A stretch of DNA of 64,000 nt, taken from contig CAAGEP010000006.1 of NCBI GenBank assembly GCA_900768875.1, positions 71,950 to 135,949 of the forward strand. Reading direction: 5' to 3'. Made by a program: the position numbers and the translations under genes. The notes below the pieces were generated by a model. The model saw only the letters and a program-made list of their open reading frames with translations. It was not told where the DNA came from and ran no database searches. The DNA is from Alphaproteobacteria bacterium. GTDB lineage: Bacteria > Pseudomonadota > Alphaproteobacteria > CAAGCB01 > CAG-977. This document shows positions 3,125 through 41,737 of this stretch, piece after piece. Position 1 is the first letter of the stretch; every line of letters begins with the position of its first letter.

Positions 3125-6100
3125 ACGAAGAATTACTCAGCTCATCGGATAAATACTTGAAGAAATCCAACCGGACGTTGCTTCTGGTTGGAATCTTCGC
3201 GTTTCTTGCTTTTTTCATAGGCTTGATTGTTTTGTTGAGCGGCGGGGAAGCGCAAAAGGAAGACGCAAAAGTAACCGTTGAGGGAGCCAGCGACGCTTTT
3301 ACCGACATTACGGGGGGCGATGCCGACAACTTTTCCAATTTCGACGAACCGTCAACGGGCGTCAAACTGAACGTTACGCCCGATGTCATGCGCTTTGATC
3401 AAGTCGTGCTCGGCACTTCCGCGGAAGGGGCGCTGACCATCACGCCGTCATCGGGGCGCGTCAGCATTATGGAAATCGCGTTTGAAAACAACCCCGACGA
3501 CGGATTCAAACTGGAAAGCAAGTGTAAGCCGAACGATATTCTGACAACGGATTTGTCCTGTACCGTCATTGTCAAATGGGAACCGAAAACCGCACGGACG
3601 ATTCAATCGAATCTGGCGATTAAATGGCGTGATGAAACGGCTGGCGCAATCGGAAAAACGGTATTGGTTTCCGTGTCCGCCATGGCTATCGACACCAGCC
3701 TTTGCGGCGTGTGCGACGAAGCTCCGGGCGGTGGCACGACCGCCGATCAACTGCGTCAGAAAGGACGTTTGATTTTAGGACCCGACGGCAAACCTATCGG
3801 TTATGCGGACGAAAACGGTGTCGTGTACGGGTTGGACGGCAAACGCATCGGCACGTTGCGTCCCGACGGAACGGTTGTTGACGATCAGGGGTACATTATC
3901 GGTGTGGCGGAAGGCGTGCGCGTCGCTTTGGGGCCCGACGGCAGCATTATCGGAACGATTTTGCCCGACGGACGCGTCATTGACAAAGACGGCAATCTTA
4001 TCGGCTATGCTTTGCCCGACGGCACGATTGTGGATTTGAACGGCAATGTCATCGGCGCGGCAATGCGCACGGGAACGGCCGTCGACAAAAACGGCAATCC
4101 TATCGGCCGCGTGATGCCCGACGGACGTGTACTGGACGAAAACGGCAACCTTATCGGCTACTTGAATCCCGACGGCACGATTGTGGATTTGAACGGAAAC
4201 ATCATCGGTTCGGTGATGCCTTCGGGGGCGGTCGTCGATGCTTTGGGGCGCGTTTTGGGCATTGTCATGCCCGACGGTTCGGTGGTTGACAAAGACGGCA
4301 ATGTTATCGGCCGCGTTTTACCCAACGGGTTCGTGGTTGACAAAGACGGCAACATCATCGGCCGCGTGATTAAAGAAGGGCTTGCCATCGGTCCGGGGTG
4401 CCGCCTTATCGGCCGTGTCAGCACGGACGGGTCGGTCATGTCTTCCAACAAGCAGGTCGGACGGCTGACCGCGGCGATGATTGTGGTTGACATGGGCAAC
4501 AATCCCGTCGGCGGCTATGTGCAAGAAGGCGCGGTTTTGGGATGGGATGGAAAGACAATCGGCAAAATCGATTCCGACGGCCAGCCCGTCAGCTTCAAAG
4601 GCGATTTGCTGGGGTGCTTGCTGCCCAACGCGGCGGTTGTCAATGACAGCGAGGAGATGATAGGCGCTTTGCGGCCTTACGGAACGGTTGTCGGAACGCG
4701 CTGCGGTTTTGAAGGCCGCGTGATGCCCGACGGTTCCGTCGTTAACAACGGCGAACTCAAAGGGCGCATCTTGCCGGATAAAACCTTTTTGCGCGAAGAC
4801 GGAACCATCGGCGGCGCGATTGCCCGCAGTAACGTCGGGCTTGCGCCGGGATGCGCCAATTTGGGCTTTGCCAACATCGACGGACAAATGATGACCACCA
4901 AAGGCGAATTTGTCGGGTGTTTGGCGGCAAACGGCGATGTGCTGGATGACAAGTATGTCGTTTTGGGGCGTGTGTTGGATACGGGAACCGCTATCGGCGT
5001 TGACGGCAGAATGATCGGCATTTTGGACAGCGCGGGCAAAATTGTCGATAAAAACGGAAAAGTTTTGGCGTGCATGGATCCCGATTACGTCGCGATTTCC
5101 GAAACCAAAAACGAACCTGTCGGCATGGCGACCCCGCAGGGCGGCGTTTTGGACCGTGACGGCCGGACGGTCGGATGGGTGATGCCCGACGCGTCGGTCA
5201 AAAACACGCAGGGAGGTTCTGTCGGCAAAACATTGGGGGACGCCTCTGTTGTCGATATGACAGGGCAAAAAGTCGCCCGCGTCGTTCCGTTCCAAGGATT
5301 GCCGTTAAAGGCGGCGTGCGAACCCGTCGGGCGGATTATTATGGACGGGCGTATTGTCGACAAAGACTTTAAACGGACGGCGTATTTAAGACTGGACGAT
5401 TCTTTGGCGGACGAACAGGACAATTTCATCGGACGTTTGGCAACGGCTCAGCACGGCATCGATTCCCGCAGCACTTATGTGGGGGCGATTGACGAAACGG
5501 GGGCTTTGATTAACCAGGCGGGTGAAAAAGTCGGCTGCTTGCGTCCGGACAATCTGTTCGTCGACTCGGACGGAAAATTCAAAGCCGCGCAAATGCTCAC
5601 GGGGCTGGCCGTCAATCCGCAAACCGATTTGTACGCCCGCGGCGATTCAATCGGCAAAGCGTTAAACCTCAAAGGAACGGATTTTGTCGGTAAAACGTTG
5701 GTCAGCACTTACATTCAAAATGACGATAAAACGGTAACGGGCGGCATCATTCCCGCCGGAGCGGCGGTTTTGGACATTAAAACCAGCAAGCCCATCGGCC
5801 GTTTGCTGCCGGACGGCAATGCGGTGAATTTGCAAAGCCGTTTTCTGGGGCGGTTGAAAATGCCGGGCGGCGACGTTGTGGATCGCGCCGGAACCGTTGT
5901 CGGCCGCGTTTTTGTGGGATTGAGGCAAGTGATTGGGCCGAACGGCGAAATTTTGGGCGTCGTTTTGTCCGACGGAACGGTGATTGACGCCAACGGGCAA
6001 GTCATCGGACAGGCGGATTTGCAAGGAAAAGTCGTCGATAAGGACGGCAATGTCATCGGCGAAGTTCTGCCTGTGGGCATGCCTGTTTTGGGGGCGGACG

Positions 6101-9100
6101 GCAAAATCATCGGCTATGTCGGATTAAACGGCGAAATCGTTGACGAAGACGGCAAACCCGTGTTGGGCGAAGACGGCAAGCCTTTGCGTTACCGTTCGGG
6201 CGGAATGGTGGTCAGTGCGGACGGAAAAGTGGTTGGCTTTACGCTGAATGACGGCTTGGCGATCGGCTTTGACAACAAAGTGCTGGGAACAATCAACGCT
6301 CAAGCCGTTGTTCGGAACGCCAACGGGACGGACTTGGGGACGATGCAGGTTGACGGCACCGTCGTTGACACAATGGCGACGCCTATCGGTCGCGGACTGA
6401 TTAACGCCGTTCCCGTCGGCAGGCAATGCCGCGGGTTAGGGGCTGTGAATTCAGAGGGCAAAGTTGTTTCCGCTTCGGGCGACGAACTGGGGTTTGTAAC
6501 GTTTGACCGAGCCGTTTTGGATGCGACAAATACACAAATCGGAATTGTACTCAGCCCCGATTCCGTGATTGACAGACCGTGCAATATTACGGGCGAAATC
6601 GGGCGCGACGGTAAATTCCGCAGCGCAAGCGGCAACGAAACCGGCTGTGTGGATTTCGACGGCATCGTAACGAACAAAAACACGAAACGCATCGGAACGG
6701 TGATTTTGAAAGGACCTGTCATCGGCTTTGACGGCAAAGTGTTCGGTAAAGTCGTTCCCAACGGCGAAGTGTTGGATGCAGACGGCAATGTTTTGGGATG
6801 CTTCGGCGCAGACGGCGCGATTTACAACAAAAGCAACACGCTGACGGGCGTGTCCGATTTAATGAAATACGCCGTTGACGCCAAAGGAAAAACCGTTGCC
6901 AGAATCGTCGGCGGAAAATACGGCGTTTCACGGGAAAACGACAAATTGGTCGGGATGCTTGAAGGCGGAAGATTGCTGGATGACAAAGGGACGGAAATCG
7001 GGTTGCCCGTTCCCGCGGGCAGACGCGTCATCGGTCGTGACGGGCGCATTGTCGGCACGGTTCTGCCCAAAGGCGGTGTTGCGGCCGATAACGGTGAAAA
7101 CAAAGGCTTTGTAACATCCCGCATGCGCGCTTTGACACCCGACAACAAATTCTTGGGGCGTGTCGTTCCCGTCGGAGAGGAGTGTAAGGACAAAGGCGGA
7201 CAAGTCGTCGGCAAAGTTCATTTTGACGGTACGATTGTCGATGAAAACGTCGAAGTGCTGGGGCGTATTATGGCGAACGGTACGGCATTAAGCAATGCGG
7301 GAACGTATTTGTGCTCCATTTCTCCGATGAGCGTTGTTGACGATGTGTGGACAGGCAAAGCCGTGTATGATGCCAACGGAAATCTTATCGGTTATGTCGA
7401 CGAAGATGGAAACGTTCGCGATGCCAGCGGAAAAATCATCGGCCGCGTCATGCCCGACGGAACGGTCGTCGATTTGAACGGCAACACAATCGGTTATGTG
7501 GCTTTGGGCGAACCCGTGTATGATGCCAACGGCAAGCTTATCGGTTTTGTCGGCGAGGACGGCATTGTCCGCGATGCGCAAGGCAACGTTATCGGCACTT
7601 TGCGTCCCGACGGGACGGTCGTTGACGAAAACGGCAACATTATCGGAAAAACGTTGGGAACGCCGCTGTACGACGCTGACGGAAATCTTATCGGTTTCGT
7701 CGGCAAAGACGGGGTGGCGCGCGATTTGAACGGCAATGTGCTGGGGGTTCCCGTGTTTGACGAAAACGGCAAGCTTATCGGTTTTGCGGATAAAGACGGA
7801 AAGGTTCGCGATTTGAAAGGTAATGTCATCGGCACTTTGCGTCCCGACGGGACGGTCGTTGACGAAAACGGCAACATTATCGGAAAAGCGTTGGGAACGC
7901 CGCTGTACGACGCTGACGGAAATCTTATCGGTTTTGTCGGCAAAGACGGGGTGGCGCGCGATTTGAAAGGCAATGTGCTGGGGGTTCCCGTGTACGACGC
8001 CAACGGCAAGCTTATCGGTTTTGCGGATAAAGACGGAACGGTTCGCGATTTGAAAGGCAATGTCATCGGCAAAGTTCTGCCTGACGGGACGGTCGTTGAT
8101 TTGAACGGCAATGTCATCGGCAAAATCGATTCCAGGGCGATGCAGGCCAAAAAGAATGTTCGGATTGCGGTCGGCCGCGACGGCAAATTTTTGGGCATTG
8201 TCGGTGAAGACGGCTTTGTCCGCGACGCGAACGGCAATATCATCGGCAAAGTTCTGCCCGACGGAACGGTCGTCGATTTGAACGGCAACGTTATCGGTTC
8301 CGTGATAGAAGGCGAGCCGCTTTACGATGAAAACGGAAACCTTATCGGCGTTGTCAAAGCCGACGGAACGGTTGTCGATTTGAACGGTAATGTGCTGGGG
8401 CATTTGAACGCTGACGGCGAAATCGTTGACAAGGACGGCAATGTTATCGGCATATGGAAAAACGGCAAGCTGACCATGCAGGGCGACAAGCTTAAACCGC
8501 GATTCGCTTTTGATAAAAACGGCAACAGAATCGGCATCGTCCTGCCCGACGGAACGGTTATTGACGCGAACGGCAACATCATCGGCCATGTGGACGAAAA
8601 CGGCAACGTCATCGGTCTGGACGGCGAAATTATCGGCTCTTTGACCGACGGCGGCGGAAAAGAAGGCAAGGACAAAGATAAAGTTTCCGTTTTCGGAAAA
8701 TTCGATCCGGATTCCTACCGATACCGCGGTAAAGGTTTGGGCGCGGGCGGCGGCACGGGCAAGGGCGAACGCTATGACCCGTCGCGGATTAAAGAGCTGC
8801 GCGCGAAACAAATGGCTTACCGCAAAATGATTCGTCCGGGATTGGGCGCGGGATTGGAGGAGGATTCCGAATCGGCGTTGCTGAAAAAACAGCACAGAGC
8901 CAACAACTGGAGCAGCATCAACATTAATAAAAACGTATCGTCCTATCGTGTAAAGATGGATAATATGATTTTAGCGGACAAAGCCATTCCCGCCGTATTG
9001 ACGCGGTCAATCGATTCTTTGTACAGCGATGTTCCCGTTTCCGCCGTTGTGGAACGCAACGTGTATTCGGAAAGCGGCCGGAAAGTGATTATTCCCGCGG

Positions 9101-9993
9101 GCAGCCGTTTAATCGGTGAACAGGGAAACGCAGGGGCGGCTGAAGAAAACAGTATTGCCGTAAAAATGCAGATTAAATGGACGCGTTTGATTCGTCCCGA
9201 CGGTGCGGCGTTCAAGTTTGAAGACGGTGCGTCGGGCGACGCGCAGGGGCGCGCCGGTGTTTCGTCGTACGTCGATTTGCAGCTGATTCGGAAATTCGGG
9301 ACGCCGTTGTTGCAAAGTACGGTTTCCTCCGCGCTGTTGTGGGCGATGTCTTCCAATTCAAAACCCGAAGTCGGCGACAACGGCGAAATCGCGCTCAGCG
9401 ACCGTCAGCAGGCGGCGCAGGACGCGCGTTCTCAGTTTTCGGACGATATGAGATCGATGTTTGATTCCATTTTTGCCATGACGTCCAAAATTCCGGCTCG
9501 TTCGTTTGTTCCGTCGGGAACGCGGATTACCGTTTTCGCCAAAGAGGATTTATGGCTTCGTTCCGAAGTGGAAGATAACGAAGTCAATCCTATGCTTGGA
9601 AAGGGATTGGTAAACGAAAAAATGGGTACCGAAGAAGACTTGCGCCTGCAAAAACAAAAGATGAAAGACAAAGGCGAGGATATGGGCGGCTTGACGCAGG
9701 AACAAGTAAATCAAAACACTATGATAGCGGGCGGGACTCCGAACAATCCGCAAATGCAGCAGCAGATTTACTACAACAGCTACGGTCAGCCCGTTATGCC
9801 GCAACAAGGCGGATTGGCGCCTCAGCAAGTGCCGGCCGGATATTATGCCGCACCGCCGGGATACTACGGTTATGCTCCGCCGCCGCAGTCGCAACTGCTG
9901 ACTCCGCCGGCGCCGCAACAGCCGAAGCCGCAGAGCGCGCCGGCGCTTCAAGAATCGGTCAAGGATGAAGATCCCGCCCCCGAATTGTTCTGA
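3121..9993 (+). CDS. virB10: giant T4SS VirB10/TrbI family protein (~2290 aa) with N-terminal TM anchor, ~1600-aa tandem-repeat insertion, VirB10 C-terminal domain and Q/P/Y-rich tail
   Basis: The ATG at 3121 overlaps the virB9 stop. A TM helix follows (LLLVGIFAFLAFFIGLIVLLSG). The C-terminal region (YRVKMDNMILADKAIPAVLTRSIDSLYSDVPVSAVVERNVY...IIPAGSRLIGEQ...) matches the VirB10/TrbI fold signature. The gene sits in canonical virB9-virB10-virB11 order. Confidence 0.75.
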   Translation: MNEELLSSSDKYLKKSNRTLLLVGIFAFLAFFIGLIVLLSGGEAQKEDAKVTVEGASDAFTDITGGDADNFSNFDEPSTGVKLNVTPDVMRFDQVVLGTSAEGALTITPSSGRVSIMEIAFENNPDDGFKLESKCKPNDILTTDLSCTVIVKWEPKTARTIQSNLAIKWRDETAGAIGKTVLVSVSAMAIDTSLCGVCDEAPGGGTTADQLRQKGRLILGPDGKPIGYADENGVVYGLDGKRIGTLRPDGTVVDDQGYIIGVAEGVRVALGPDGSIIGTILPDGRVIDKDGNLIGYALPDGTIVDLNGNVIGAAMRTGTAVDKNGNPIGRVMPDGRVLDENGNLIGYLNPDGTIVDLNGNIIGSVMPSGAVVDALGRVLGIVMPDGSVVDKDGNVIGRVLPNGFVVDKDGNIIGRVIKEGLAIGPGCRLIGRVSTDGSVMSSNKQVGRLTAAMIVVDMGNNPVGGYVQEGAVLGWDGKTIGKIDSDGQPVSFKGDLLGCLLPNAAVVNDSEEMIGALRPYGTVVGTRCGFEGRVMPDGSVVNNGELKGRILPDKTFLREDGTIGGAIARSNVGLAPGCANLGFANIDGQMMTTKGEFVGCLAANGDVLDDKYVVLGRVLDTGTAIGVDGRMIGILDSAGKIVDKNGKVLACMDPDYVAISETKNEPVGMATPQGGVLDRDGRTVGWVMPDASVKNTQGGSVGKTLGDASVVDMTGQKVARVVPFQGLPLKAACEPVGRIIMDGRIVDKDFKRTAYLRLDDSLADEQDNFIGRLATAQHGIDSRSTYVGAIDETGALINQAGEKVGCLRPDNLFVDSDGKFKAAQMLTGLAVNPQTDLYARGDSIGKALNLKGTDFVGKTLVSTYIQNDDKTVTGGIIPAGAAVLDIKTSKPIGRLLPDGNAVNLQSRFLGRLKMPGGDVVDRAGTVVGRVFVGLRQVIGPNGEILGVVLSDGTVIDANGQVIGQADLQGKVVDKDGNVIGEVLPVGMPVLGADGKIIGYVGLNGEIVDEDGKPVLGEDGKPLRYRSGGMVVSADGKVVGFTLNDGLAIGFDNKVLGTINAQAVVRNANGTDLGTMQVDGTVVDTMATPIGRGLINAVPVGRQCRGLGAVNSEGKVVSASGDELGFVTFDRAVLDATNTQIGIVLSPDSVIDRPCNITGEIGRDGKFRSASGNETGCVDFDGIVTNKNTKRIGTVILKGPVIGFDGKVFGKVVPNGEVLDADGNVLGCFGADGAIYNKSNTLTGVSDLMKYAVDAKGKTVARIVGGKYGVSRENDKLVGMLEGGRLLDDKGTEIGLPVPAGRRVIGRDGRIVGTVLPKGGVAADNGENKGFVTSRMRALTPDNKFLGRVVPVGEECKDKGGQVVGKVHFDGTIVDENVEVLGRIMANGTALSNAGTYLCSISPMSVVDDVWTGKAVYDANGNLIGYVDEDGNVRDASGKIIGRVMPDGTVVDLNGNTIGYVALGEPVYDANGKLIGFVGEDGIVRDAQGNVIGTLRPDGTVVDENGNIIGKTLGTPLYDADGNLIGFVGKDGVARDLNGNVLGVPVFDENGKLIGFADKDGKVRDLKGNVIGTLRPDGTVVDENGNIIGKALGTPLYDADGNLIGFVGKDGVARDLKGNVLGVPVYDANGKLIGFADKDGTVRDLKGNVIGKVLPDGTVVDLNGNVIGKIDSRAMQAKKNVRIAVGRDGKFLGIVGEDGFVRDANGNIIGKVLPDGTVVDLNGNVIGSVIEGEPLYDENGNLIGVVKADGTVVDLNGNVLGHLNADGEIVDKDGNVIGIWKNGKLTMQGDKLKPRFAFDKNGNRIGIVLPDGTVIDANGNIIGHVDENGNVIGLDGEIIGSLTDGGGKEGKDKDKVSVFGKFDPDSYRYRGKGLGAGGGTGKGERYDPSRIKELRAKQMAYRKMIRPGLGAGLEEDSESALLKKQHRANNWSSININKNVSSYRVKMDNMILADKAIPAVLTRSIDSLYSDVPVSAVVERNVYSESGRKVIIPAGSRLIGEQGNAGAAEENSIAVKMQIKWTRLIRPDGAAFKFEDGASGDAQGRAGVSSYVDLQLIRKFGTPLLQSTVSSALLWAMSSNSKPEVGDNGEIALSDRQQAAQDARSQFSDDMRSMFDSIFAMTSKIPARSFVPSGTRITVFAKEDLWLRSEVEDNEVNPMLGKGLVNEKMGTEEDLRLQKQKMKDKGEDMGGLTQEQVNQNTMIAGGTPNNPQMQQQIYYNSYGQPVMPQQGGLAPQQVPAGYYAAPPGYYGYAPPPQSQLLTPPAPQQPKPQSAPALQESVKDEDPAPELF
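3775..8650 (+). repeat. intragenic tandem array (~90 copies) of a degenerate 17-19-residue unit V-[LM]-P-D-G-x-V-V-D-x-x-G-N-[VI]-I-G-x within virB10; includes near-identical 237-bp direct repeats (about 7591..7827 vs 7828..8064)
   Basis: Read directly from the translation (e.g. VMPDGSVVDKDGNVIGR / VLPNGFVVDKDGNIIGR). At the DNA level a 79-codon block is duplicated with only a few mismatches. Confidence 0.85.
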
Positions 9994-16722: not shown

Positions 16723-18066
16723 ATGGATGAATGGCACAAAAGTTTGATTGACGACATCGGTGCTTTGCCCGAATACCGGTCGTACGGGTCGGTTTCGGCG
16801 GTCAAAGGCATGCTGGTCGAAATGACGGGCGCGCGTTCGGAACTGTCCGTCGGCGACCGCTGTACGATTTTGGCGCGCGCGGGCAAAAAAGTCCCCGCCG
16901 AAGTCGTCGGCTTCAACGGCGGCAAAGTGCTGTTGATGCCGTTCGTGAACCTTGACGGCGTAGGCCCCGGAAACGAGGTTGATTTAAGCAACGCGCATCC
17001 CGTCTTGTATCCCGATATTTCTTGGCTGGGGCGGGTGATTAACGCCATGGGCGAACCCGTCGACGGCAAAGGTCCGTTGAAAAAAGGCAAGGTGCCGTGC
17101 TTGATTCACGCGTCGCCGCCGCCCGCCAATTCGCGCGAACGTGTCGCGGGCAAAGCCGATTTGGGCGTGCGGGCGATTAACACTTTTCTGACGCTGTGCA
17201 AAGGACAACGTATGGGCATCTTTGCGGGATCGGGCGTGGGCAAATCGTCGTTGATGGCGATGATGGCGCGGCATACGCAGCTGGATGTGACGGTGTTGGG
17301 GCTTATCGGTGAACGCGGACGCGAAGCGCGCGAGTTCATCGAGGACGATTTGGGCGTCGAAGGCATGAAGCGCAGTGTCGTCGTGGTGGCGACATCGGAC
17401 GAAAGCCCTTTGATGCGGCGGCAGGCGGCGTATGTCGCGATGACGGTCGCCGAGTATTTTCGCGATTTGCACAACAACGTTTTGTGCATGATGGACAGTA
17501 TTACCCGTTTCGCGATGGCGCAAAGGGAAATCAGTTTGTCCGCGGGCGAACCTCCGGCGACCAAAGGCTACACGCCGACGGTGTTTGCGGAACTGCCCCG
17601 TTTGCTGGAACGCGCGGGACCGGGGCGCATCGGGTCGGGGTCGATTACGGGGCTGTTCACCGTTCTGGTGGACGGCGACGACCACAACGAACCGATTGCC
17701 GACGCGGTGCGCGGCATTTTGGACGGTCACATCGTTTTGGAACGCGCGATTGCCGAACGCAACCGCTATCCCGCGGTCAACCTGCTGCGCAGTATTTCGC
17801 GTACCATGCCGGGGTGCAACTCGGACGAGGAAAACGCTCTTGTCAACCGCGCGCGCGCTTTGATTGCGACATACGAAGACATGGCGGAGCTGATTCGGTT
17901 GGGCGCGTACAAGCACGGGTCGAACGCGCAAGTCGACGAAGCGATTTTCTATTATGACAAGCTGGAAGCCTTTTTGTCGCAAAAGAAAAAGGAAAAAGTC
18001 GATTTTGCAACGGGCTATCAGCAGCTGAAGGACATTTTGTCGCAAAAGCCCGCCGGTGCTGAATAA
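16723..18066 (+). CDS. fliI: flagellum-specific ATPase FliI
   Basis: 447 aa with Walker A GSGVGKSSL and the FliI/T3SS ATPase family layout. Followed by fliJ with a 1-nt overlap (TAATG). Confidence 0.85.
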   Translation: MDEWHKSLIDDIGALPEYRSYGSVSAVKGMLVEMTGARSELSVGDRCTILARAGKKVPAEVVGFNGGKVLLMPFVNLDGVGPGNEVDLSNAHPVLYPDISWLGRVINAMGEPVDGKGPLKKGKVPCLIHASPPPANSRERVAGKADLGVRAINTFLTLCKGQRMGIFAGSGVGKSSLMAMMARHTQLDVTVLGLIGERGREAREFIEDDLGVEGMKRSVVVVATSDESPLMRRQAAYVAMTVAEYFRDLHNNVLCMMDSITRFAMAQREISLSAGEPPATKGYTPTVFAELPRLLERAGPGRIGSGSITGLFTVLVDGDDHNEPIADAVRGILDGHIVLERAIAERNRYPAVNLLRSISRTMPGCNSDEENALVNRARALIATYEDMAELIRLGAYKHGSNAQVDEAIFYYDKLEAFLSQKKKEKVDFATGYQQLKDILSQKPAGAE

Positions 18067-22345: not shown

Positions 22346-24952
22346 ATGTCCAAGATTTTTTCAACTTTGCTCAGCTACGCCATGCTGATTGCGATTATGG
22401 GGCTTATCGCGCTGTTGCTGATTTTTTCCCATTACGGCAGAAGCGTTGACGATTATCGTCAGCTGGCGACGTACGAACCGCCGATTACCAGCCGCTTGTA
22501 CGCCGCGGACGGCAAACTGCTGGCGGAATACGCGTCCGAAAAACGTGTGTTCGTTCCTTACGAAGCTATTCCGCAAAAGCTGATTCAAGCCTTTATTTCC
22601 GCCGAAGATAAAAAGTTTTTCACGCACGGCGGCGTTGACTTTATGGGCATTACCCGCGCGGTGTTTCAAAACATCCGCAACATCGGCCGCGGCCGGCGCA
22701 TGATCGGCGCGTCAACCATTACTCAGCAGGTCGCCAAAAACTTTCTGCTGACCAACGAAGCATCCTTTGAACGCAAAATCAAGGAAGCCATCCTTGCCGT
22801 GCGCATCGAACGCGCGTTTACCAAAGAATACATTATGGAATTGTACTTGAACCAGATTTATCTGGGGCATTATTCCTACGGCGTTGCGGCGGCGGCGCTG
22901 AATTACTTTGACAAATCGCTGGACGAACTGACGATTGCCGAAGACGCTTTTCTGGCGGCTTTGCCCAAAGGGCCGAACAACTACGATCCCGATAAACGCT
23001 ATGACGAAGCGGTGGCGCGCCGCAACTGGGTGCTGTCCCGTATGGCGGAGGACGGCTATATCACTGACGAACAAGCCATTGAAGCATCCCGCGAACCGAT
23101 TACGCTCGCCAAACGCGCGCAAAGCGAAACGGCGGCGGACGGAGAATACTTTGCCGAAGAAATCCGCCGCACTCTGGTTTCCAAATACGGCGAGGATATT
23201 CTTTACAAGGGCGGATTGGCGGTCAGAACGACGCTTGATCCCGAAAAGCAGAAATATGCGGCCGACGCGTTGCGTCAGGGATTGCTGAACTACGACCGCC
23301 GCCACGGGTTCCGCGCGCCGATTGCCCACATCGATTTGGACGCGATTCCCGATGTCGAACCCGTCGAACAGCCCGAACAATCAGACCAAGCCGAAACCTC
23401 CGCCGAAGAAACGGAGGAAACCGAAGTCGCCGAAGAAGAAATCCCCGATCCGAAATGGCTGGAACCGCTGAAATCCGTTCCCGTTGCTTCTTATGTTCCC
23501 GAAACGTGGAAAACGGCGATTGTGACGAATGTCACGGCCGAAGCCGCCGAAATCGGACTGGCCGACAAAACGACGGGGACGATTCCTTTGGCGGAACTGA
23601 AATGGGCGCGCAAAAATTTGCCCGACCAGACATTGGGACCCGAAATCACCGCTGCGTCCGAAGTTTTGAAAACGGGTGACGTGATTTGGGTCGAACCCGT
23701 TAAATTCGGCGCGAAACGCGTGCCGTATCCCGAAAACACCTACACTTTGCGCCAAATCCCCGAAGTCGAAGGCGCGATGGTTGTTCTTGACCCGCATACG
23801 GGGCGCGTTCTGGCGATGGTCGGCGGCTTTTCGTTCAAGCGGTCGCAGTTCAACCGCGCGGTGCAAGCGAAACGTCAGCCGGGGTCAAGCTTCAAGCCGT
23901 TTGTGTATCTGGCGGCTTTGGACAAAGAATTTACGCCGTCGACGTTGGTTTTGGACGCGCCGTTTGTCATGGAGCAGGGCAACGGCATGGGAAAATGGAA
24001 GCCCAAAAATGTTTCCAAACGGTTTTACGGACCGACGACTTTGCGCATGGGCATCGAAAAGTCCCGCAACCTGATTACGATTCGTCTGGCGCGCGCAATC
24101 GGTATCGACACAGTGGTTGAATACGCCAAAAAATTCGGCATTTCGGACGATTTGCCGCCGCAGATGTCCGTCGCCATCGGATCGGGCGAAACAACGGTTT
24201 TGCGGCTGGCGACGGCATACGGCATGCTGGTCAACGGGGGCAAAAAAATCGAACCCGTCTTAATCGACCGTATTCAAGACAGAACGGGCGCGACGGTGTA
24301 TAATTCGGACACTCGTCCGTGCGAAAATTGCCGCGACGCAATGTGGGACGGACAGCCCGCTCCGAAAATCCCCGATATTCGCGAACAAATCGAAGACCCG
24401 CGCAGCGCATACCAAATCATCAATATTATGACGGGGGTTTTGGCTCCGGGGGGCAGCGCGTCGAATTTACGCCGCTTGGGACGAACGTTCGCGGCGAAAA
24501 CGGGAACGTCGAACAATTCTTTGGACGCTTGGTTTGTGGGTGTAACGCCCGATCTTGTCATGGCGGTATTTGTCGGCTTTGACGATCCGCGCACACTGGG
24601 CAAGCACGATTTGGGCGGTTCGGTCGCGTCGCCGATATTCAAACAGTTCGTTGATACGGCGTTAAAGGACGAACCCCGTATTCCGTTCCGTGTTCCCGCG
24701 GGTATCCGCTTTGTTCGCGTCAACCACAAAACGGGAAAACCCGCTTCGCCCAAAGACCGCGATGTCGTGTTGGAAGCTTTTAAAATCGGCGAAGACTGGC
24801 GCGGTAAAATCAAAGGCACTTTGGACGGTTCGGATGAAGAAAACGAACAAATCGACGACGACAAGGTCGATAAGACGGAGCAAATGCACAACCGCATGCG
24901 TCAGACCGAAGAAATCGACGACAATATGCCCGATATCGGCAGTGTATTTTAA
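22346..24952 (+). CDS. mrcA: penicillin-binding protein 1A (bifunctional glycosyltransferase/transpeptidase)
   Basis: GT51 motifs (EDKKFFTHGGVD, RGASTITQQ). Transpeptidase SxxK (SSFKP), SxN and KTGT motifs. Confidence 0.85.
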   Translation: MSKIFSTLLSYAMLIAIMGLIALLLIFSHYGRSVDDYRQLATYEPPITSRLYAADGKLLAEYASEKRVFVPYEAIPQKLIQAFISAEDKKFFTHGGVDFMGITRAVFQNIRNIGRGRRMIGASTITQQVAKNFLLTNEASFERKIKEAILAVRIERAFTKEYIMELYLNQIYLGHYSYGVAAAALNYFDKSLDELTIAEDAFLAALPKGPNNYDPDKRYDEAVARRNWVLSRMAEDGYITDEQAIEASREPITLAKRAQSETAADGEYFAEEIRRTLVSKYGEDILYKGGLAVRTTLDPEKQKYAADALRQGLLNYDRRHGFRAPIAHIDLDAIPDVEPVEQPEQSDQAETSAEETEETEVAEEEIPDPKWLEPLKSVPVASYVPETWKTAIVTNVTAEAAEIGLADKTTGTIPLAELKWARKNLPDQTLGPEITAASEVLKTGDVIWVEPVKFGAKRVPYPENTYTLRQIPEVEGAMVVLDPHTGRVLAMVGGFSFKRSQFNRAVQAKRQPGSSFKPFVYLAALDKEFTPSTLVLDAPFVMEQGNGMGKWKPKNVSKRFYGPTTLRMGIEKSRNLITIRLARAIGIDTVVEYAKKFGISDDLPPQMSVAIGSGETTVLRLATAYGMLVNGGKKIEPVLIDRIQDRTGATVYNSDTRPCENCRDAMWDGQPAPKIPDIREQIEDPRSAYQIINIMTGVLAPGGSASNLRRLGRTFAAKTGTSNNSLDAWFVGVTPDLVMAVFVGFDDPRTLGKHDLGGSVASPIFKQFVDTALKDEPRIPFRVPAGIRFVRVNHKTGKPASPKDRDVVLEAFKIGEDWRGKIKGTLDGSDEENEQIDDDKVDKTEQMHNRMRQTEEIDDNMPDIGSVF

Positions 24953-32317: not shown

Positions 32318-32392
32318 GCGGGTGTAGCTCAGGGGTAGAGCGCAACCTTGCCAAGGTTGATGTCGAGGGTTCAAATCCCTTCGCCCGCTCCA
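32318..32392 (+). tRNA. tRNA-Gly (anticodon GCC), CCA encoded
   Basis: Cloverleaf: acceptor GCGGGTG/CGCCCGC, D-arm AGCTCAGGGGTAGAGC, anticodon loop CTTGCCAAG, T-arm GGGTTCAAATCCC, 3' CCA. Followed by the terminator hairpin CCGTCCATTAGGACGG + T7. Confidence 0.85.
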
Positions 32393-32398
32393 ATAAAA

Positions 32399-32715
32399 AA
32401 GCCGTCCATTAGGACGGTTTTTTTATTGGAAGTAGGCAAGGGGCTTGAACCCGAGAAGAGGGTTCGGCCGAAGCGAGAGCGAAGGCAACGCCGTGGAACG
32501 GCGGCCCGCAGGGCGAGCGTCAGCGAGTAAATCCCTTCGCCCGCAAAATTTGCCAAACCCTTAAATTCCAAGCCGTCCATTAGGGCGGTTTTTTTATTGG
32601 AAGTAGGCAAGGGGATTGAACCCGAGAAGAGGGTTCGGCCGAAGCGAGAGCGAAGGCAACGCCGTGGAACGGCGGCCCGCAGGGCGAGCGTCAGCGAGTA
32701 AATCCCTTCGCCCGC
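32399..32715 (+). repeat. two tandem ~146-nt units (32399..32544 and 32570..32715, ~98% identical, 171-nt period), each starting with the tRNA terminator hairpin and ending with a copy of the tRNA-Gly 3' end (AAATCCCTTCGCCCGC)
   Basis: Direct sequence comparison. The units look like att-site or tRNA 3'-half duplications of the kind left by integrase-mediated insertion and excision at tRNA genes. Confidence 0.75.
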
Positions 32716-32888
32716 AAAAGAAAGGCGTTTTCGGACGGCGGCGGTTCGACCGGAACAATCTGAATTCCGTTATGATAATTCGGTTGCGGCAAAATACGGG
32801 GCGGGCTTTTTTCTTGTCGAAAGAAAGGGAAACGCTTATACTTAAGGTACGGAAAAAATTGTTATTCTTAAAATCGGGGAAATTTTTA

Positions 32889-33206
32889 ATGAAAAAGTTC
32901 GTTTTTGTTTTATTGTGCGGCGGTATCGGCCTTTATGCCGAATCCGCTTTTGCCAAAGCGCAATGTCCCATGGGAATGACGCAGGAACAGTGCTGTTCAT
33001 CCAACGGCACGCTGACGATTGACGCGGCTAGCGCTCTGTGCGGATCGCAGGCCACAATCAAAGGCGTGTATTATGCGGGATGCGCCAAATGTCCCGCCGG
33101 ATTTGAAGAAGGCGGATCATCATCGTCGTCGTCATCATCCGCCACGGCGTTGTCCTGTAAATATCCTTTGACGCTGTCTTCGGACGGCTGTTGCTGCGGC
33201 AAATAA
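32889..33206 (+). CDS. small secreted cysteine-rich protein (105 aa) ending ...DGCCCGK
   Basis: Signal peptide MKKFVFVLLCGGIGLYAESAFA|KA. 12 Cys. A Ser8 run. C-terminal CCC motif shared with the downstream paralog. Confidence 0.55.
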   Translation: MKKFVFVLLCGGIGLYAESAFAKAQCPMGMTQEQCCSSNGTLTIDAASALCGSQATIKGVYYAGCAKCPAGFEEGGSSSSSSSSATALSCKYPLTLSSDGCCCGK

Positions 33207-33219
33207 AAAGGGGGCGGCC

Positions 33220-33723
33220 ATGAAGAAACTTTTGCTGGTTTTGATGATGAGCTTTGCGGCCTGCAATGCGCAGGCGCGCGCCATTAAGCTGGGAGATGCG
33301 GCATCGGATGTCGGAACGGGGACATCCGTTGTCAAAAAACGGGTATGCACGTCGAATTCTCAATGCATTACGTCGCTGTGTTTAGAGGGAAAATGCGTGC
33401 GTTGCAACAATGAAGATAAAAAATGCCCCGACGGTCAAGTTTGTCAAGTCAGCGGCGTTTGCGTTCCCGGCTATTCCTGCCGTTCTTCCGACGAATGTGA
33501 TTACGGTTATAAATGTGTGTCGGGAAGCTGTTCGTTGTGTTCCGCGGGCGATCCGGAGTGCCACTGCCCGTCCGGAGCAAAAGCCGACGGTCGCGGCGGA
33601 TGCGTATGCCCCGATGATTCGTTTTCTTATGACGGACGGTGCATTAAATACTGTGCTTATACCGCGTGCAAATCGGGATATACACCGACATACGACGGCA
33701 TGACGGGATGCTGCTGCCGTTAA
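33220..33723 (+). CDS. secreted cysteine-rich protein (167 aa; ~24 Cys) ending ...GCCCR
   Basis: Signal peptide MKKLLLVLMMSFAACNAQARA. Repeated C-x(3-6)-C-x-x-G-x-C modules. C-terminal CCC motif. Confidence 0.55.
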   Translation: MKKLLLVLMMSFAACNAQARAIKLGDAASDVGTGTSVVKKRVCTSNSQCITSLCLEGKCVRCNNEDKKCPDGQVCQVSGVCVPGYSCRSSDECDYGYKCVSGSCSLCSAGDPECHCPSGAKADGRGGCVCPDDSFSYDGRCIKYCAYTACKSGYTPTYDGMTGCCCR

Positions 33724-33736
33724 AATCACGAATACG

Positions 33737-33772
33737 AAAAAGGCTCTTTGAAAATCAAAGAGCCTTTTTCTT
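33737..33772. terminator. bidirectional rho-independent terminator
   Basis: AAAAAGGCTCTTTGAAAATCAAAGAGCCTTTTT. Confidence 0.6.
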
Positions 33773-37594: not shown

Positions 37595-40500
37595 CTAGGC
37601 CTGAGCGTTGAAAACGCGCGACAAGGTCATATACAGACGGCCTGCTTCAGAACCCAGCAAAACAGCGGTCAGCACGTCGGAACGTTCGTTTTCCTGCGCG
37701 CGGGACAGCACACCTTCAAAAATGCCCATATATTTTGAAACATAATTGCGGAATTCGGAATCTTCGGTGTATTTTTCGCCGATTTTGCGGATTTGATTTT
37801 TGTCAATCGCGCGGGACAGATAGCGGATAAATGCACTTTTATCGCCGGAATAGTAGCGTTTCCACAAATCGTCTTCAACATTCGGGGCGAACAGGCGCGT
37901 CATATCGACACCCAGCGATTGCAGCTGTTCAATAATCAGCGACGCGTCTTTCATAAAGCGGTCGGTGTCGGCGTCTTCTTTGCGTTTGTTCAGCGCGGCG
38001 ATGTATTCCTCCGCCGATCGGGATGCCGAAATCAGCGATTGCACCTGACGATTGAACGCGCCGCCCAGTTTAAGGGACTGTGCCGAAATCTGTTCGCCCG
38101 ATTCGTGGATTTCCTTGGCGTTTTCCTTTAGAACGCTCAACAAATCCTGCAGGCGTTTCAACGCTTCGTCTGCGGCGGTTGACAGCGTGTCCGACTGTTC
38201 GACGAACTGTTCGCCCGATTTGCGGACTTCGGCGGCGATGCGTTCGGAATTACCGGCGACTTCGCTGATCATGGCGCGCAAACGCTGGCCTGCGACATCG
38301 ATTTGAACGACGCCCTTGTTGGACATGTCCTCGAATTCTTTACCGATCTGATTGACGACATCGCCGATGCTGCGGACGCGTTCTTCGGCCGTTTCGGCGG
38401 TTTTGTTAAAGTCCTCGGCCCGTTCGCGCAGGACAACGCCGCAGTTTTTGACGGCTTTTTGGGCTTCTTCCGACAATCGAGAAACCTGATGCGCCTGTAC
38501 CAAAAACGTATCGCCGGATTTTTCCAATTCTTCAAGCGCGATTTGAGAAGCGGCGCGCAGCCGTTCTTTTTTTGCGTCAAGCAAATCGCCCGCATCCGTC
38601 AGATCGCCGATGACTTGTTGAACCAGTTGCGACAAAAGTTCGGTTTTGTCCTCCAGCATTTCAGATGTGGATTGGGACAGCGACACGGATTTTGCGGCGG
38701 CTTTGGATGCTTCTTCGTTGCGCTGACGCAGGTTTTCGCCCATGGCTTCCAGCTCGAAACCGATGCGCGACGACGCGGTCAGCAAATCGGTCGTGTTTTT
38801 CCGAACGGCTTCGTTCGTATCGCGCAAATGAATCATCACGTCTTCCGCCGCGCCTTTCAAAGCGTCGGTTTGGCGGCTCAAAGACGCTTCACCCAGTCGA
38901 GACTGCGTGGCAATCATGTTGGCAACATCGCCTAAATCAATAATGTGCCTCTGCATGGAATCGCGAACCATCAAGACCTGCTGAGCCGATTGAGCGGATT
39001 GTTTTTGCAAATCGTCCGTTTGAGCGGCGATTTCGGCTTTCAGTCCGTTCATGCGGTCGTTCAAGGCGTCCGCGGTTGCGGAAAAACCGGATTGCACGCG
39101 GGCCAGCGTGTCGATGCCTGTTGTTTGATTGTCCGAAAAATCCTTCATTAAAGCCGAAATTTCCGTTATTTTTTCACCGAACAGGGCGGCGGCTTCGGTC
39201 AAGCGGGCTTTCGCCTGCGCGCCGATGTCCGTCAAGCTGTCCGTCTGCGCCGATAAAGCCGCGCCGACAACTTCCAAATGGGACACCGTCGTTTCCGATG
39301 CGCGGGTCAGTTCTTTTGTTTGGACGCTCAGTCCTTCCTCAATCAAGCGGATGCGGGATACCAAGCGTTCCAAATCGCTGTCCGCCTGTTCGGACTGTTC
39401 CCGCAGCAAAGTCGCCGCTTTGCCCATTTGTTCCGCCAGTTTATCGGAAGCATCGGACATCGTTTTGCTCTGTTTGGAAAACAGGGAATCGATTCGATCC
39501 GTCTTTTCCGACAAATCGCCGGCAACGGTTGTCGCTCTGTCCAGCAGAATTCCCGCATCCCCGTCCAGTTTGCGGAACTGTTCGTCCAGTTGGGAAACGG
39601 CTTTTTCGGTGCGGCTTTTCAGCAAATCGGCGGACACGTCCATCTGCGTCATCCGTCGGGTGATTTCTGCGGAAACTTCTTCCGTATAGCCTGTCATGCG
39701 GCGAATCGAATCGTCCAGCATGTCCTTGTGGGCGTCCAGTGTTTCCGCCAGCTGCGTGTTTGCGGCGGCCGTTTGTTTCGACGCATTGTCGAACGATTGG
39801 ATTTTGTTGCCCAAAGCAATTTCCAGTTCAGTGAATTTGTCGGCGGCGGCGGACGATTTCGCCACTATGTCGCGCAGCCGGTCGGACAGGCTTTCGATTG
39901 TTGCGGCACTGCGGTTTTCAAGCAGTTCCGCGATGTGAGCCAAATCTTCCGACTGCTGTTTCAATTCGCCCTTGATTTCTTCCACTCTGGCCGATGCGGC
40001 GGAAATGTATTTCTGCTGTTGAGCCAACGACGTTTCGGACACCAGTGCCTGCGACACCAGTGCGCTGCTTAAATCGGACAGCTCGGCGGAATGTTTCAGC
40101 AGGCGGGCGCAAGAGGAATCGGCGCGTTCGTTTGTTTGATCGACCGCCGTTTTCAAAAGGCGCACGCTTGCTTCAAAGCAAGAGTTTATCGATTCCAACC
40201 TGTCGTTCGCCGTATCCAAAGCGGCGTTCAGCCGCGCCGTTTGCGTATCCAGCGATTCCATGGCGGCTTGAGATTGGGCGTTCGTGTTTTTCAAAGCAAC
40301 CGTCAGCAGTTGCGTTTTCATGTCGATTTGTTCGCCGACATCCGTCAGGCGGCTGCTCGCTTTTTCCGCCGCCGCTTCAATCGATTCGGCTTTGCCGTTC
40401 ATTTCGTCCGATACCGCGGAAATGCCGCCGACGGCCGTTTGCGCCGCCGTGTTGATTTCGGCGATGTAAGTGTCCAATGTGGTCTGCAAGGTCTTGAAGC

Positions 40501-41737
40501 GCGCGACGATTTTTTCGGCTTCGCTGTCCAGACTGTTGTTTTGTTCCTTGAACGTGGCGGACAACTGCGCCGCCGTGGCGTGCAAAGCGTCGTTTTTGGC
40601 CGAAATTTCGCTTTGCTGGGCGGACAGCAATTCCGTCAAGGTCTGTTCGCGCCGTTCCAAATTGTCCGCCATCTGTTCCGCATTGGCGCGTGCCGATTTC
40701 GTCAGTTCATCCAGAATTTGAGCTTTTTCATCCAGCAAAACCGTCAACGCCGCCACGGAATCCTGCGTGCGCGTTCCCGCCTGCTCAAGGGCGGTCAGCT
40801 GATTTCGGATTTCCGTGCTGATTTCCGTTGTCTGATTTGCCAGCTTTTCGCGAATGTTGTCGGCGGCGGCGGTTAAAGAGGCGGCGTTTTTGGCGATTTC
40901 AAGCGCGGTGATGCCCGTTTGTTCCGTTAAAATGTCGCGGGCGTTTTCGGATGCGGTTTTCAGCAATCCGCTTTGTTCCCGCACATCCAAAGTCAATCGG
41001 GTCAGATTGTCGGTCAAAATGTCGTTCGTTTGCAATAAAGCGTCGCGCTGCGCGGTCAGCCGTTCCCTTGCGGCGCAAACGGTTTCGTCGGTTTCGCGGG
41101 CGGCGTTTTGCAAAGCTTGCGTGTTTTCCTGCAGCAAGGACAGGCTTTTTTCCGTCTGTTCGCCGGCTAAAGTGCAAAGCTGTTCAAGTTCGCGCGTTTT
41201 TTCGGCGACTCCGTTCGTTCCCCGCGACAAGGCGGCTTCCATGGCTTCGGTGGCTTTGAAAATGCCGGAGGTTTGCTCTTCAAAAGATTTTCCGATCGAA
41301 TCGGTACAGTTTTTCAATCGGGCGTAAACGGTGTTCAAATCCGATGTTTGCGCTTTCAAGCTGTCCAGCACACCCGATACATACAGGCGGTTTTTGGCTT
41401 CGGGATGCGTAAATTCCGCCATATAGCGGCGCAAAATGTCGGCCTCGCGGACATAGCGCCGTTCGGACGCAAAGTATGCCGCCGCAATCCAAATGAAGGC
41501 AACGGGACTCAGCAATCCCGTCAAGCAGCTGAAGTATTCGGGGGGCGTCATTTCGTAGCGCGCGCTCCACCACCCCGAAACGCCCAAAAACGACCATGCC
41601 GAAACGCCCCACAAAACCGTTAGCGCGATTGCCGCAATCACGGCGATTTTGTCTTTTGCCGATTTCGGGGAAAGGGTTTCCTGCGACAGCAGCAGCGTTT
41701 CGTTTGTTTCGTTTTCCGAAGCCATGGTCTTTTCCAT
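37595..41737 (-). CDS. 1380-aa membrane-anchored coiled-coil protein (2 N-terminal TM helices, ~1100-aa Q/A/L/E/T/S-rich coiled coil, ~170-aa C-terminal globular domain); TipN-like architecture, function unknown
   Basis: TM segments IAVIAAIALTVLWGVSAWSFLGV and LTGLLSPVAFIWIAAAYFA. Long heptad-like low-complexity region. No recognised enzymatic motif. Confidence 0.5.
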   Translation of the reverse strand: MEKTMASENETNETLLLSQETLSPKSAKDKIAVIAAIALTVLWGVSAWSFLGVSGWWSARYEMTPPEYFSCLTGLLSPVAFIWIAAAYFASERRYVREADILRRYMAEFTHPEAKNRLYVSGVLDSLKAQTSDLNTVYARLKNCTDSIGKSFEEQTSGIFKATEAMEAALSRGTNGVAEKTRELEQLCTLAGEQTEKSLSLLQENTQALQNAARETDETVCAARERLTAQRDALLQTNDILTDNLTRLTLDVREQSGLLKTASENARDILTEQTGITALEIAKNAASLTAAADNIREKLANQTTEISTEIRNQLTALEQAGTRTQDSVAALTVLLDEKAQILDELTKSARANAEQMADNLERREQTLTELLSAQQSEISAKNDALHATAAQLSATFKEQNNSLDSEAEKIVARFKTLQTTLDTYIAEINTAAQTAVGGISAVSDEMNGKAESIEAAAEKASSRLTDVGEQIDMKTQLLTVALKNTNAQSQAAMESLDTQTARLNAALDTANDRLESINSCFEASVRLLKTAVDQTNERADSSCARLLKHSAELSDLSSALVSQALVSETSLAQQQKYISAASARVEEIKGELKQQSEDLAHIAELLENRSAATIESLSDRLRDIVAKSSAAADKFTELEIALGNKIQSFDNASKQTAAANTQLAETLDAHKDMLDDSIRRMTGYTEEVSAEITRRMTQMDVSADLLKSRTEKAVSQLDEQFRKLDGDAGILLDRATTVAGDLSEKTDRIDSLFSKQSKTMSDASDKLAEQMGKAATLLREQSEQADSDLERLVSRIRLIEEGLSVQTKELTRASETTVSHLEVVGAALSAQTDSLTDIGAQAKARLTEAAALFGEKITEISALMKDFSDNQTTGIDTLARVQSGFSATADALNDRMNGLKAEIAAQTDDLQKQSAQSAQQVLMVRDSMQRHIIDLGDVANMIATQSRLGEASLSRQTDALKGAAEDVMIHLRDTNEAVRKNTTDLLTASSRIGFELEAMGENLRQRNEEASKAAAKSVSLSQSTSEMLEDKTELLSQLVQQVIGDLTDAGDLLDAKKERLRAASQIALEELEKSGDTFLVQAHQVSRLSEEAQKAVKNCGVVLRERAEDFNKTAETAEERVRSIGDVVNQIGKEFEDMSNKGVVQIDVAGQRLRAMISEVAGNSERIAAEVRKSGEQFVEQSDTLSTAADEALKRLQDLLSVLKENAKEIHESGEQISAQSLKLGGAFNRQVQSLISASRSAEEYIAALNKRKEDADTDRFMKDASLIIEQLQSLGVDMTRLFAPNVEDDLWKRYYSGDKSAFIRYLSRAIDKNQIRKIGEKYTEDSEFRNYVSKYMGIFEGVLSRAQENERSDVLTAVLLGSEAGRLYMTLSRVFNAQA

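Follow-up and report, generated by a model that had tools for sequence, protein, structure and literature searches.

A two-gene cassette for cysteine-rich, putatively exported proteins in uncultured gut Alphaproteobacteria

We studied two adjacent small genes for cysteine-rich proteins, ORF1 and ORF2 (ORF, open reading frame), in a stretch of 64,000 nucleotides (nt) of contig CAAGEP010000006.1, from the Alphaproteobacteria bacterium assembly GCA_900768875.1. This whole stretch is hereafter called the window. The comparison of the two genes with their homologues suggests that they are a reduced local copy of a two-gene cassette, in which a gene that we call A precedes a gene that we call B, and that this cassette is restricted to a lineage of uncultured gut Alphaproteobacteria and relatives. 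The pair had been singled out in an original prediction made from the letters of the window. Its two adjacent ORFs of 105 and 167 amino acids (aa) with Sec-type signal peptides are indeed there (Table 1), as is the run of eight serines in ORF1; its count of about 24 cysteines in ORF2 was right (24, of which 23 are in the mature protein), and its count of 12 in ORF1 should be 11 (10 in the mature protein). Both proteins start with MKK, followed by a hydrophobic core and an AxA-type cleavage site (AFA before K in ORF1, AQA before R in ORF2). ORF1 begins with MKKFVFVLLCGGIGLYAESAFA, continues after the cleavage site with KAQC..., contains the serine run and ends in SSDGCCCGK. ORF2 begins with MKKLLLVLMMSFAACNAQA, continues with RAIKLG... 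and ends in DGMTGCCCR.

The B family was delineated from ORF2. An exhaustive HMMER search with this protein retrieved about a dozen small homologues with 29-54% identity and invariant cysteines (phmmer E values from 4e-41 to 4e-5). A word-indexed protein search returned near-identical proteins only, and a profile search brought few extra ones. As defined here, the family includes ORF2, P0006-P0013, P0018, P0021 and P0031, and its alignments have 19 invariant columns (alignment A3) or 10 (alignment A1). The signal peptide of B proteins ends in AQA or AEA and is followed by a conserved [RK]-[SA]-x-K-L-G. The body is made of one to three hairpin modules of the type C-x5-C-x4/5-C-x4-C-x2-C (EB/DUF7107-like), and the protein closes with a family-specific terminal module, C.C...G.F.Y.G.C.KYCDYT.C..GY...(D)G.CCC. 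ORF2 is homologous to the family over its full length and has both the invariant cysteines and the terminal module: its KLG motif is followed by three EB/DPY-like hairpin modules and by a C-terminal module, C114-C166, closing in CCC. Residues 42-113 match modules of long proteins with Big, TIG, invasin or lectin domains; the module at residues 114-167 is confined to this small family. Of 18 B proteins, 13 have an odd number of cysteines in the mature form (23 or 15), and therefore one B cysteine is probably without an intramolecular partner. We also considered whether ORF2 could be a lipoprotein and rejected it, since the cysteine of its signal peptide is not conserved and is absent from most homologues, and the site after AQA is of the signal peptidase I type. 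The NCBIfam model NF050142 (PG1828 family lipoprotein) gave 15.8 bits where 50 are required, in the signal peptide region only.

The A family is far more diverse in size. Its proteins span 102 to 1078 aa and 11 to 135 cysteines, with mature lengths of about 80 to about 1050 residues. They are built from a unit of roughly 55 residues, C.xGQY..S...C.xCS.I.V.NG.C..CS...C...C..GY...C, and have conserved ends: the signal peptide, and a C-terminal tail that reads C-x-[YPA]-P-L-x3-[SA]-D-G-CCC-x-K or ...DYSGxCxGCCxx (e.g., ...SCQYPLKEATDYSGECDGCCTD, ...NCMDGLSVTADGCCCAK and ...SCKAPLKLSADGCCCTL). The tail of ORF1, ...SCKYPLTLSSDGCCCGK, conforms to this pattern. When a hidden Markov model (HMM) of the A tail, whose training set excluded the window and its sister species (L012, see below), was run on the 895 ORF fragments of the window, ORF1 was the sole significant match (18.6 bits, E value of 6e-5; the next had an E value of 0.95). 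ORF1 also has the layout of A proteins, with its MKK... signal peptide and its position 13 nt upstream of the B gene. Its body could be brought into a loose MAFFT alignment with the A repeat and no closer. Judging from these features, ORF1 looks like a minimal, partly decayed member of the family, with the two conserved ends and one decayed unit. At the other extreme, the 1078-aa A protein of L037 passes the Pfam family PF07699 (Ephrin_rec_like) with 47.9 bits against a cut-off of 23.1, in six stretches, and also touches TNFR_ELAPOR1 (PF23091). Mid-size A proteins match Ephrin_rec_like below threshold, and neither ORF1 nor ORF2 matches PF07699. The number of cysteines in the mature protein is even in every complete A protein, one case depending on an uncertain signal-peptide cleavage site.

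A and B come together, and always in that order. Among the B genes that could be placed on contigs with upstream sequence, all 14 non-identical cassettes have a cysteine-rich gene with a signal peptide (A) 10-18 nt upstream of B. The cassette can be multi-copy: the genome UBA6411 has three, at unrelated housekeeping loci and with upstream and B sequences in common. Contigs carrying the family include some of 33-45% guanine plus cytosine (GC). There is no third gene conserved across cassettes. Two cassettes have an additional gene after B (L021 2812-3447 and L022 5635-6267), whose 210-aa product has one cysteine, no signal peptide, a hydrophobic Ala/Gly-rich center and no Pfam family. In addition, a gene 1.6 kb upstream of another A-B cassette (L022 1469-1852 and L023 87-470) encodes a cytoplasmic His/Cys-rich protein of 127 aa (MKNEHEHCCCGHHEHHHECGCGHHHDH...) that contains CCC and probably binds metal. 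Finally, a full cassette (463 aa and 161 aa) lies on a contig binned as Limosilactobacillus gorillae (L027, CAVCSV010000039.1), which is most likely mis-binned rather than a Gram-positive occurrence.

The obligate pairing raises a question: what do the two proteins do together? A possible answer, which we put forward tentatively, is a disulfide-rich extracytoplasmic complex in which B is the constant partner and A contributes the part that varies and is exposed. A and B would both be exported by Sec and would then fold oxidatively into disulfide ladders. They could associate via their conserved C-terminal parts, giving a complex located in the envelope or on the surface, for which B may provide an invariant base or adaptor. 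The tri-cysteine would be the final element of each terminal disulfide module. The leftover cysteine of B could make an intermolecular bridge, act as a metal ligand or stay as a free thiol.

The variation of the cassettes is concentrated in the body of A, which is mosaic. The identities of B and A are 100% and 52% between L017 and L018, 99% and 58% between L030 and L031, and 90% and 45% between a pair of paralogous cassettes in a single genome. Aligned as DNA, L017 and L018 share 98.2% identity as far as codon 5 of A; they then have unrelated A segments (440 versus 794 bp), and agree again, with 99.7% identity, over the last ~58 codons of A and over B. The comparison of L026 with L032 reveals the same type of replacement of the A body. 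Here, L032, at the asd/nrdD locus of L026, holds the A allele of L025 (a UBA6411 cassette) with 98% identity, in a different sample. Either gene conversion from one cassette to another has produced this mosaic, or the assembly is chimeric across the B gene, which is repeated. In the lineage of the window, A is 97-100% identical within species, with small changes in the serine run.

These patterns could also be read as those of a variable surface coat, which we think rather unlikely. Homologous recombination among the several cassettes of a genome, using the sequences conserved on the 5' side (promoter and signal peptide) and on the 3' side (tail and B), would swap the body of A. This would vary a protease-resistant, disulfide-rich surface protein, at the level of strains or within a strain, and the copy in the window would be a fixed, minimal allele. 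Taken further, and by analogy, such a multi-copy recombining system might produce a variable surface layer anchored via B, a bacterial analogue of the coats of variant-specific surface proteins (VSPs) of protozoa, to which we give the same low probability. The replacement of the A body between flanks with 98-99.7% identity fits such a coat, and so do B proteins with 99-100% identity where A has 52-58%, the sequences shared by the three cassettes of UBA6411, and CxxC-rich repeats of the ephrin-receptor-like type. However, we observed no switching within strains, surface exposure is only inferred, and the only case in which an allele seems to have moved from one locus to another (L032) could be an assembly chimera. 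Furthermore, the A gene of the window is conserved, and there is no Pfam VSP match, no transmembrane segment and no CRGKA tail.

ORF1 and ORF2 are under purifying selection. The sister species, represented by the metagenome-assembled genomes GCA_002436595 and GCA_003532815 ("Alphaproteobacteria bacterium," L012), has the pair in synteny, with protein identities of 88% (ORF1) and 87% (ORF2). In this comparison, the ratio of nonsynonymous to synonymous rates (dN/dS, Nei-Gojobori) is 0.13 for ORF1 and 0.07 for ORF2, and 0.007-0.056 for the neighboring housekeeping genes. Third codon positions dominate the substitutions (9/9/35 at positions 1/2/3 in ORF1 and 14/9/61 in ORF2). All the cysteines of the mature proteins are retained, and only the number of cysteines in the signal peptide changes. 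In the index of the assembly collection, 160 blocks contain the exact ORF2 protein, and the exact proteins recur on many contigs of human-gut metagenomes with unchanged neighbors: an abhydrolase gene, lolA, ftsK, a gene with a Lon-substrate-binding domain, a thioredoxin-TPR gene, tRNA-Gly, ORF1 and ORF2, and then a convergent GT4 glycosyltransferase gene, DUF4921 and a sigma-70 gene. The spacer between the ORFs is consistent with co-transcription or translational coupling. Upstream of ORF1, we propose a sigma-70-like promoter for the pair; both of its hexamers are kept in the sister species, although the flanking spacer has diverged or been deleted. Downstream of ORF2, a strong hairpin (fold energy of -23.5 kcal/mol, z of -8.8) is identical in the sister species and, from its fold energy, is a predicted bidirectional intrinsic terminator. 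Hence, given the dN/dS values, the third-position bias, the synteny, the conserved promoter-like site and the hairpin, ORF1 and ORF2 are real, selected genes and probably form a two-gene operon. On some contigs, gene callers lengthen ORF1 at its 5' end to 130 or 196 aa (window positions 32616-33206, with a TTG start within the repeats described below). That the 105-aa form is the correct one follows from three features: its MKKF start is conserved, it has a Shine-Dalgarno sequence, and the sister species carries an indel.

Table 1. Positions of the A-B pair and of the associated features in the window
Feature	Position	Strand	Description
tRNA-Gly(GCC)	32318-32392		
Two direct repeats	32399-32548 and 32570-32719		171-nt spacing; 99% identical
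Candidate sigma-70-like promoter	32814-32842	+	TTGTCG-17-TATACT; consensus scan; 47 nt 5' of the ORF1 start codon
ORF1 (A gene)	32889-33206	+	105 aa; Sec signal peptide, cleavage predicted after AFA22
Intergenic spacer	33207-33219	+	13 nt; Shine-Dalgarno-like AGGGGG ahead of the second ATG
ORF2 (B gene)	33220-33723	+	167 aa; signal peptide, predicted cleavage between AQA and RAIKLG
Strong hairpin with flanking A and T runs	33736-33770	.	Between ORF2 and the convergent glycosyltransferase gene

Are ORF1 and ORF2 related to each other? They had been described as paralogues with near-identical tri-cysteine tails. The tails do share DG..CCC followed by a basic residue, and near-identity did not hold, since this is all that they have in common. 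BLASTP of ORF1 against ORF2 gave E values of 1.4-2.3, with no likeness past KCPxG and GCCC, and the A-tail HMM did not match ORF2. The sequences thus point to two distinct families without detectable paralogy. One could still think that ORF1 and ORF2, or at any rate their terminal modules, arose by duplication of a single ancestral gene and then diverged; we regard this as unlikely. The alignment by hhalign of the A tails with the B terminal modules puts the cysteines in register, and its score of 20.3 was reached by none of 100 column shuffles (9.7 +/- 2.3). Still, the probability given by hhalign is just 41%, and the CCC cluster, which shuffling breaks, supplies much of the score. These results are suggestive, not conclusive, of a remote relationship linking the A tails to the terminal modules of B, and we treat the cassette as made of two families.

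The conserved CCC terminus had been proposed to be a modification or anchoring signal. We rejected this possibility, since a C-terminal sorting or modification signal of this kind should never be internal and should lie a constant number of residues from the C terminus. In P0008 and P0009, whose terminal module is duplicated, CCC is internal. In the sister species it precedes EIPH (REIPH, the R being that of CCCR), and elsewhere 1-13 residues come after it, including KQEQVEGMRGEES. P0013 has CTC where CCC is expected, and in several A proteins CCC is replaced by C.GCC or lost. Since the motif can be internal or extended, it marks the end of a module and not a C-terminal signal. As to the suggested search for other ORFs with endings of the CCC type, ORF1 and ORF2 are the only ones in the window to combine at least 9% cysteine with CC[CTV] near the end; the relatives have homologues.

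The view that the two proteins lack a recognizable family was borne out. Scans of ORF1 and ORF2 against Pfam, NCBIfam, PHROGs and PADLOC gave nothing above threshold. The resemblance to eukaryotic disulfide modules also finds support, in the weak Pfam matches to EB, DPY and Dickkopf modules (EB and DPY for ORF2 and P0008) and in the large A relative that passes Ephrin_rec_like. Sequence searches of the PDB gave just a fibrillin EGF (E value of 0.015) and Chlamydomonas Mst1 (E value of 0.0027), and tblastn against plasmid and phage collections gave no match. We carried out the structure search that had been suggested. The AlphaFold2 model of ORF2, from 13 family sequences, has a mean pLDDT of 73, and values of 82-91 over residues 80-167, the part for which its chain or ladder of short beta-hairpins is confidently predicted. 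The model of ORF1, from a 3-sequence alignment, is unusable (pLDDT of 46). Foldseek found no significant match of the ORF2 model in the PDB, the best being DR5/TRAIL-R2, the cysteine-rich domain of EphA2 and EGF arrays (E values of at least 0.04, TM-scores of ~0.2), and in BFVD only cysteine-rich membrane proteins of giant viruses, at TM-scores of ~0.2. A cytochrome was rejected because there is no CxxCH motif.

The fold matches could suggest a secreted toxin, an antimicrobial peptide or an effector directed at the host, with B as its partner, including a TNFR-like decoy for host ligands. Small, secreted, disulfide-rich proteins whose best matches, insignificant as they are, involve DR5 and EphA2 would suit such roles, and a type IV secretion system is encoded in the window. 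We nevertheless find this highly improbable. The fold matches have the high E values and low TM-scores given above, and the proteins find no match in the plasmid, phage, PHROGs and PADLOC libraries. Sec signal peptides are not used by type IV substrates, and an immunity-like gene is missing. The variation lies in an N-terminal part built from repeats, unlike that of polymorphic toxins.

The cysteines might instead, CCC included, ligate metal or act as a thiol buffer in the periplasm, an explanation that seems very unlikely to us. It would account for a cysteine content of 10-14%, with CxC and CCC clusters, in organisms of the anaerobic gut; no Dsb gene was seen within the window, and the cytoplasmic His/Cys-rich protein is encoded near another cassette (L022 1469-1852). 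Yet the cysteines are spaced as in disulfide ladders whose modules are of the EB, DPY, Dickkopf and ephrin-receptor-like kinds, AlphaFold2 predicts a ladder of hairpins, and aromatic and beta-branched residues are numerous, which sets the proteins apart from metallothioneins. The even number of cysteines in all A proteins also suits full pairing.

Another explanation, in our opinion quite unlikely, is a periplasmic lattice, in which small and large cysteine-rich proteins cross-linked by disulfides would stiffen the envelope, as OmcA and OmcB do. Two adjacent genes for cysteine-rich exported proteins, one small and one large, fit such a lattice; a Sec signal alone suits the periplasm, and the cysteines of B are odd in number. 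OmcA and OmcB are two cysteine-rich proteins heavily cross-linked by disulfides in the chlamydial outer membrane complex (PMC6752827). However, we found no similarity to the Omc families, and the extreme length polymorphism of A and the multiple cassettes per genome would be odd for a structural role. The window also encodes ordinary peptidoglycan machinery, including a class A penicillin-binding protein (22346-24952).

We thus return to the complex of A and B as the reading that we favor, against which several observations weigh. The body of ORF1 is undetected by an HMM of the 85-residue terminal repeat unit of A, which gave no match at E values up to 10; the assignment of ORF1 to A is therefore made by tail, signal peptide and position only. 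The A gene of the window is not hypervariable, with its 88% identity to the sister species close to the 87% of B. The A tails of L035 and L037 no longer have the CCC, and the L032 mosaic could be a chimera of assembly. The contact between A and B, the formation of disulfides and any location beyond Sec export are things that we infer rather than directly evidenced. These bacteria are diderms, in which a surface location would need a further export step, and the gut lumen is reducing. Finally, an even number of cysteines in A and an odd one in B are a poor fit to a simple, single disulfide between A and B.

The genomic context of the pair had been interpreted as an island beside att-like repeats, and this interpretation had to be abandoned. 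Each of the two direct repeats after tRNA-Gly closes with the 16-nt 3' end of the tRNA. The copies match the Rfam family RF00391 (RtT) over the full model (1-130) with 37.0 and 35.6 bits (E values of 3e-5 and 7e-5), below the gathering threshold of 45, and are ~95% conserved in the sister species, exceeding the synonymous sites of the flanking genes. They would thus appear to be RtT-like tRNA-linked repeats and not att sites. RtT elements are tRNA-linked repeats of the tyrT operon of Escherichia coli that likewise hold the 3' end of a tRNA. If the repeats are RtT-like, there is no evidence of an integrated island. We give only a negligible probability to the idea that the ORFs occur by chance in a spacer or are cargo of an island integrated at tRNA-Gly. 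The adjoining tRNA gene and the repeats holding its 3' end would fit it, but purifying selection and synteny in the sister species rule out chance ORFs. The nature of the repeats, this synteny and a GC content of 0.53 in ORF1 and ORF2, the same as in the window, led us to reject island cargo, and the other cassettes are at unrelated housekeeping loci that are not beside tRNA genes. An Arg-rich ORF at 32348-32530, which spans the end of the tRNA gene as well as most of the first repeat, recalls the Tpr peptide of E. coli tyrT.

Other genes of the window deserve mention. A CagX/VirB9-like gene (1601-3124) is followed, in the region 1601-9993, by a gene for a protein of 2307 aa that has a TrbI/VirB10 C terminus and beta-flower, RHS and DUF3659 repeats in its N-terminal 1900 residues. 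From this architecture, it may be a CagY-like giant VirB10 in a gut alphaproteobacterium. A gene for an ATPase of the FliI/type III secretion type (16723-18066) indicates that the organism probably has a flagellum or an injectisome. On the minus strand, an ORF of 1380 aa (37595-41737) has 1376-1380 aa in all related contigs and no Pfam match.

If our interpretation is correct, it would have consequences beyond this locus. It would add two uncharacterized protein families and an obligate gene pairing to the description of a human-gut lineage that is common yet uncultured. The mosaic, multi-copy use of eukaryote-like cysteine-ladder repeats could reflect selection at the cell surface by phages, host immunity or proteases. 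The cassettes would provide targets for expression, for the mapping of disulfides and for the typing of strains of these organisms. For the window itself the gain is modest: two hypothetical genes become a minimal A and a conserved B of a cassette, and the att-like repeats are probably RtT-like, tRNA-linked ones. This copy, minimal and stable, is the least spectacular of the cassettes.

How do these proteins compare with known systems? Their cysteine modules are of known kinds; in the literature that we searched, we found no description of the pair, nor of its obligate pairing, the cysteine tail that is shared or the mosaic alleles. EB, Dumpy-DPY, Dickkopf_N and DUF7107 modules of large bacterial surface proteins resemble residues 42-113 of ORF2, but ORF2 is under every curated cut-off, and its module at 114-167 is specific to the small family. 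The CTCK domains of mucins and VWF offer a functional analogy only, as a terminal cluster of cysteines for covalent tail-to-tail assembly; there is no match in sequence or fold (MUC5AC and VWF at E values above 0.3 and TM-scores of ~0.15).

The Giardia VSPs and other recombining variable surface proteins have, like the A proteins, cysteine-rich CxxC repeats, a body that varies while the two ends are conserved, and genes in several copies. They differ in that there is here no Pfam VSP match, transmembrane anchor or CRGKA; the proteins end in CCCGK or CCCR without a hydrophobic segment, the cassette has a separate, conserved partner gene (B), and switching was not seen. OmcA and OmcB share with our pair the combination of a small and a large cysteine-rich exported protein in a diderm, and cross-linking is known for them (PMC6752827). 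They are distinct in that our proteins have no match to them in Pfam or NCBIfam, OmcA is a lipoprotein and there is no conserved lipobox here, and Omc proteins are without polymorphism in repeat number. The omc genes, too, are adjacent to each other. The ephrin-receptor/TNFR-like repeats (PF07699; PF23091, TNFR_ELAPOR1_6th; EphA2 and the Chlamydomonas mastigoneme protein Mst1) lack a counterpart of the conserved tail of A or of its obligate partner B, and A proteins are bacterial, with a Sec signal only and no transmembrane or kinase part; neither model matches ORF1 itself. The resemblance is in the repeat: the unit of the large A protein, C.xCPxGxYS..G...C.xC..., passes PF07699, there is a weak sequence match to Mst1, and rod-like disulfide ladders are a feature in common.

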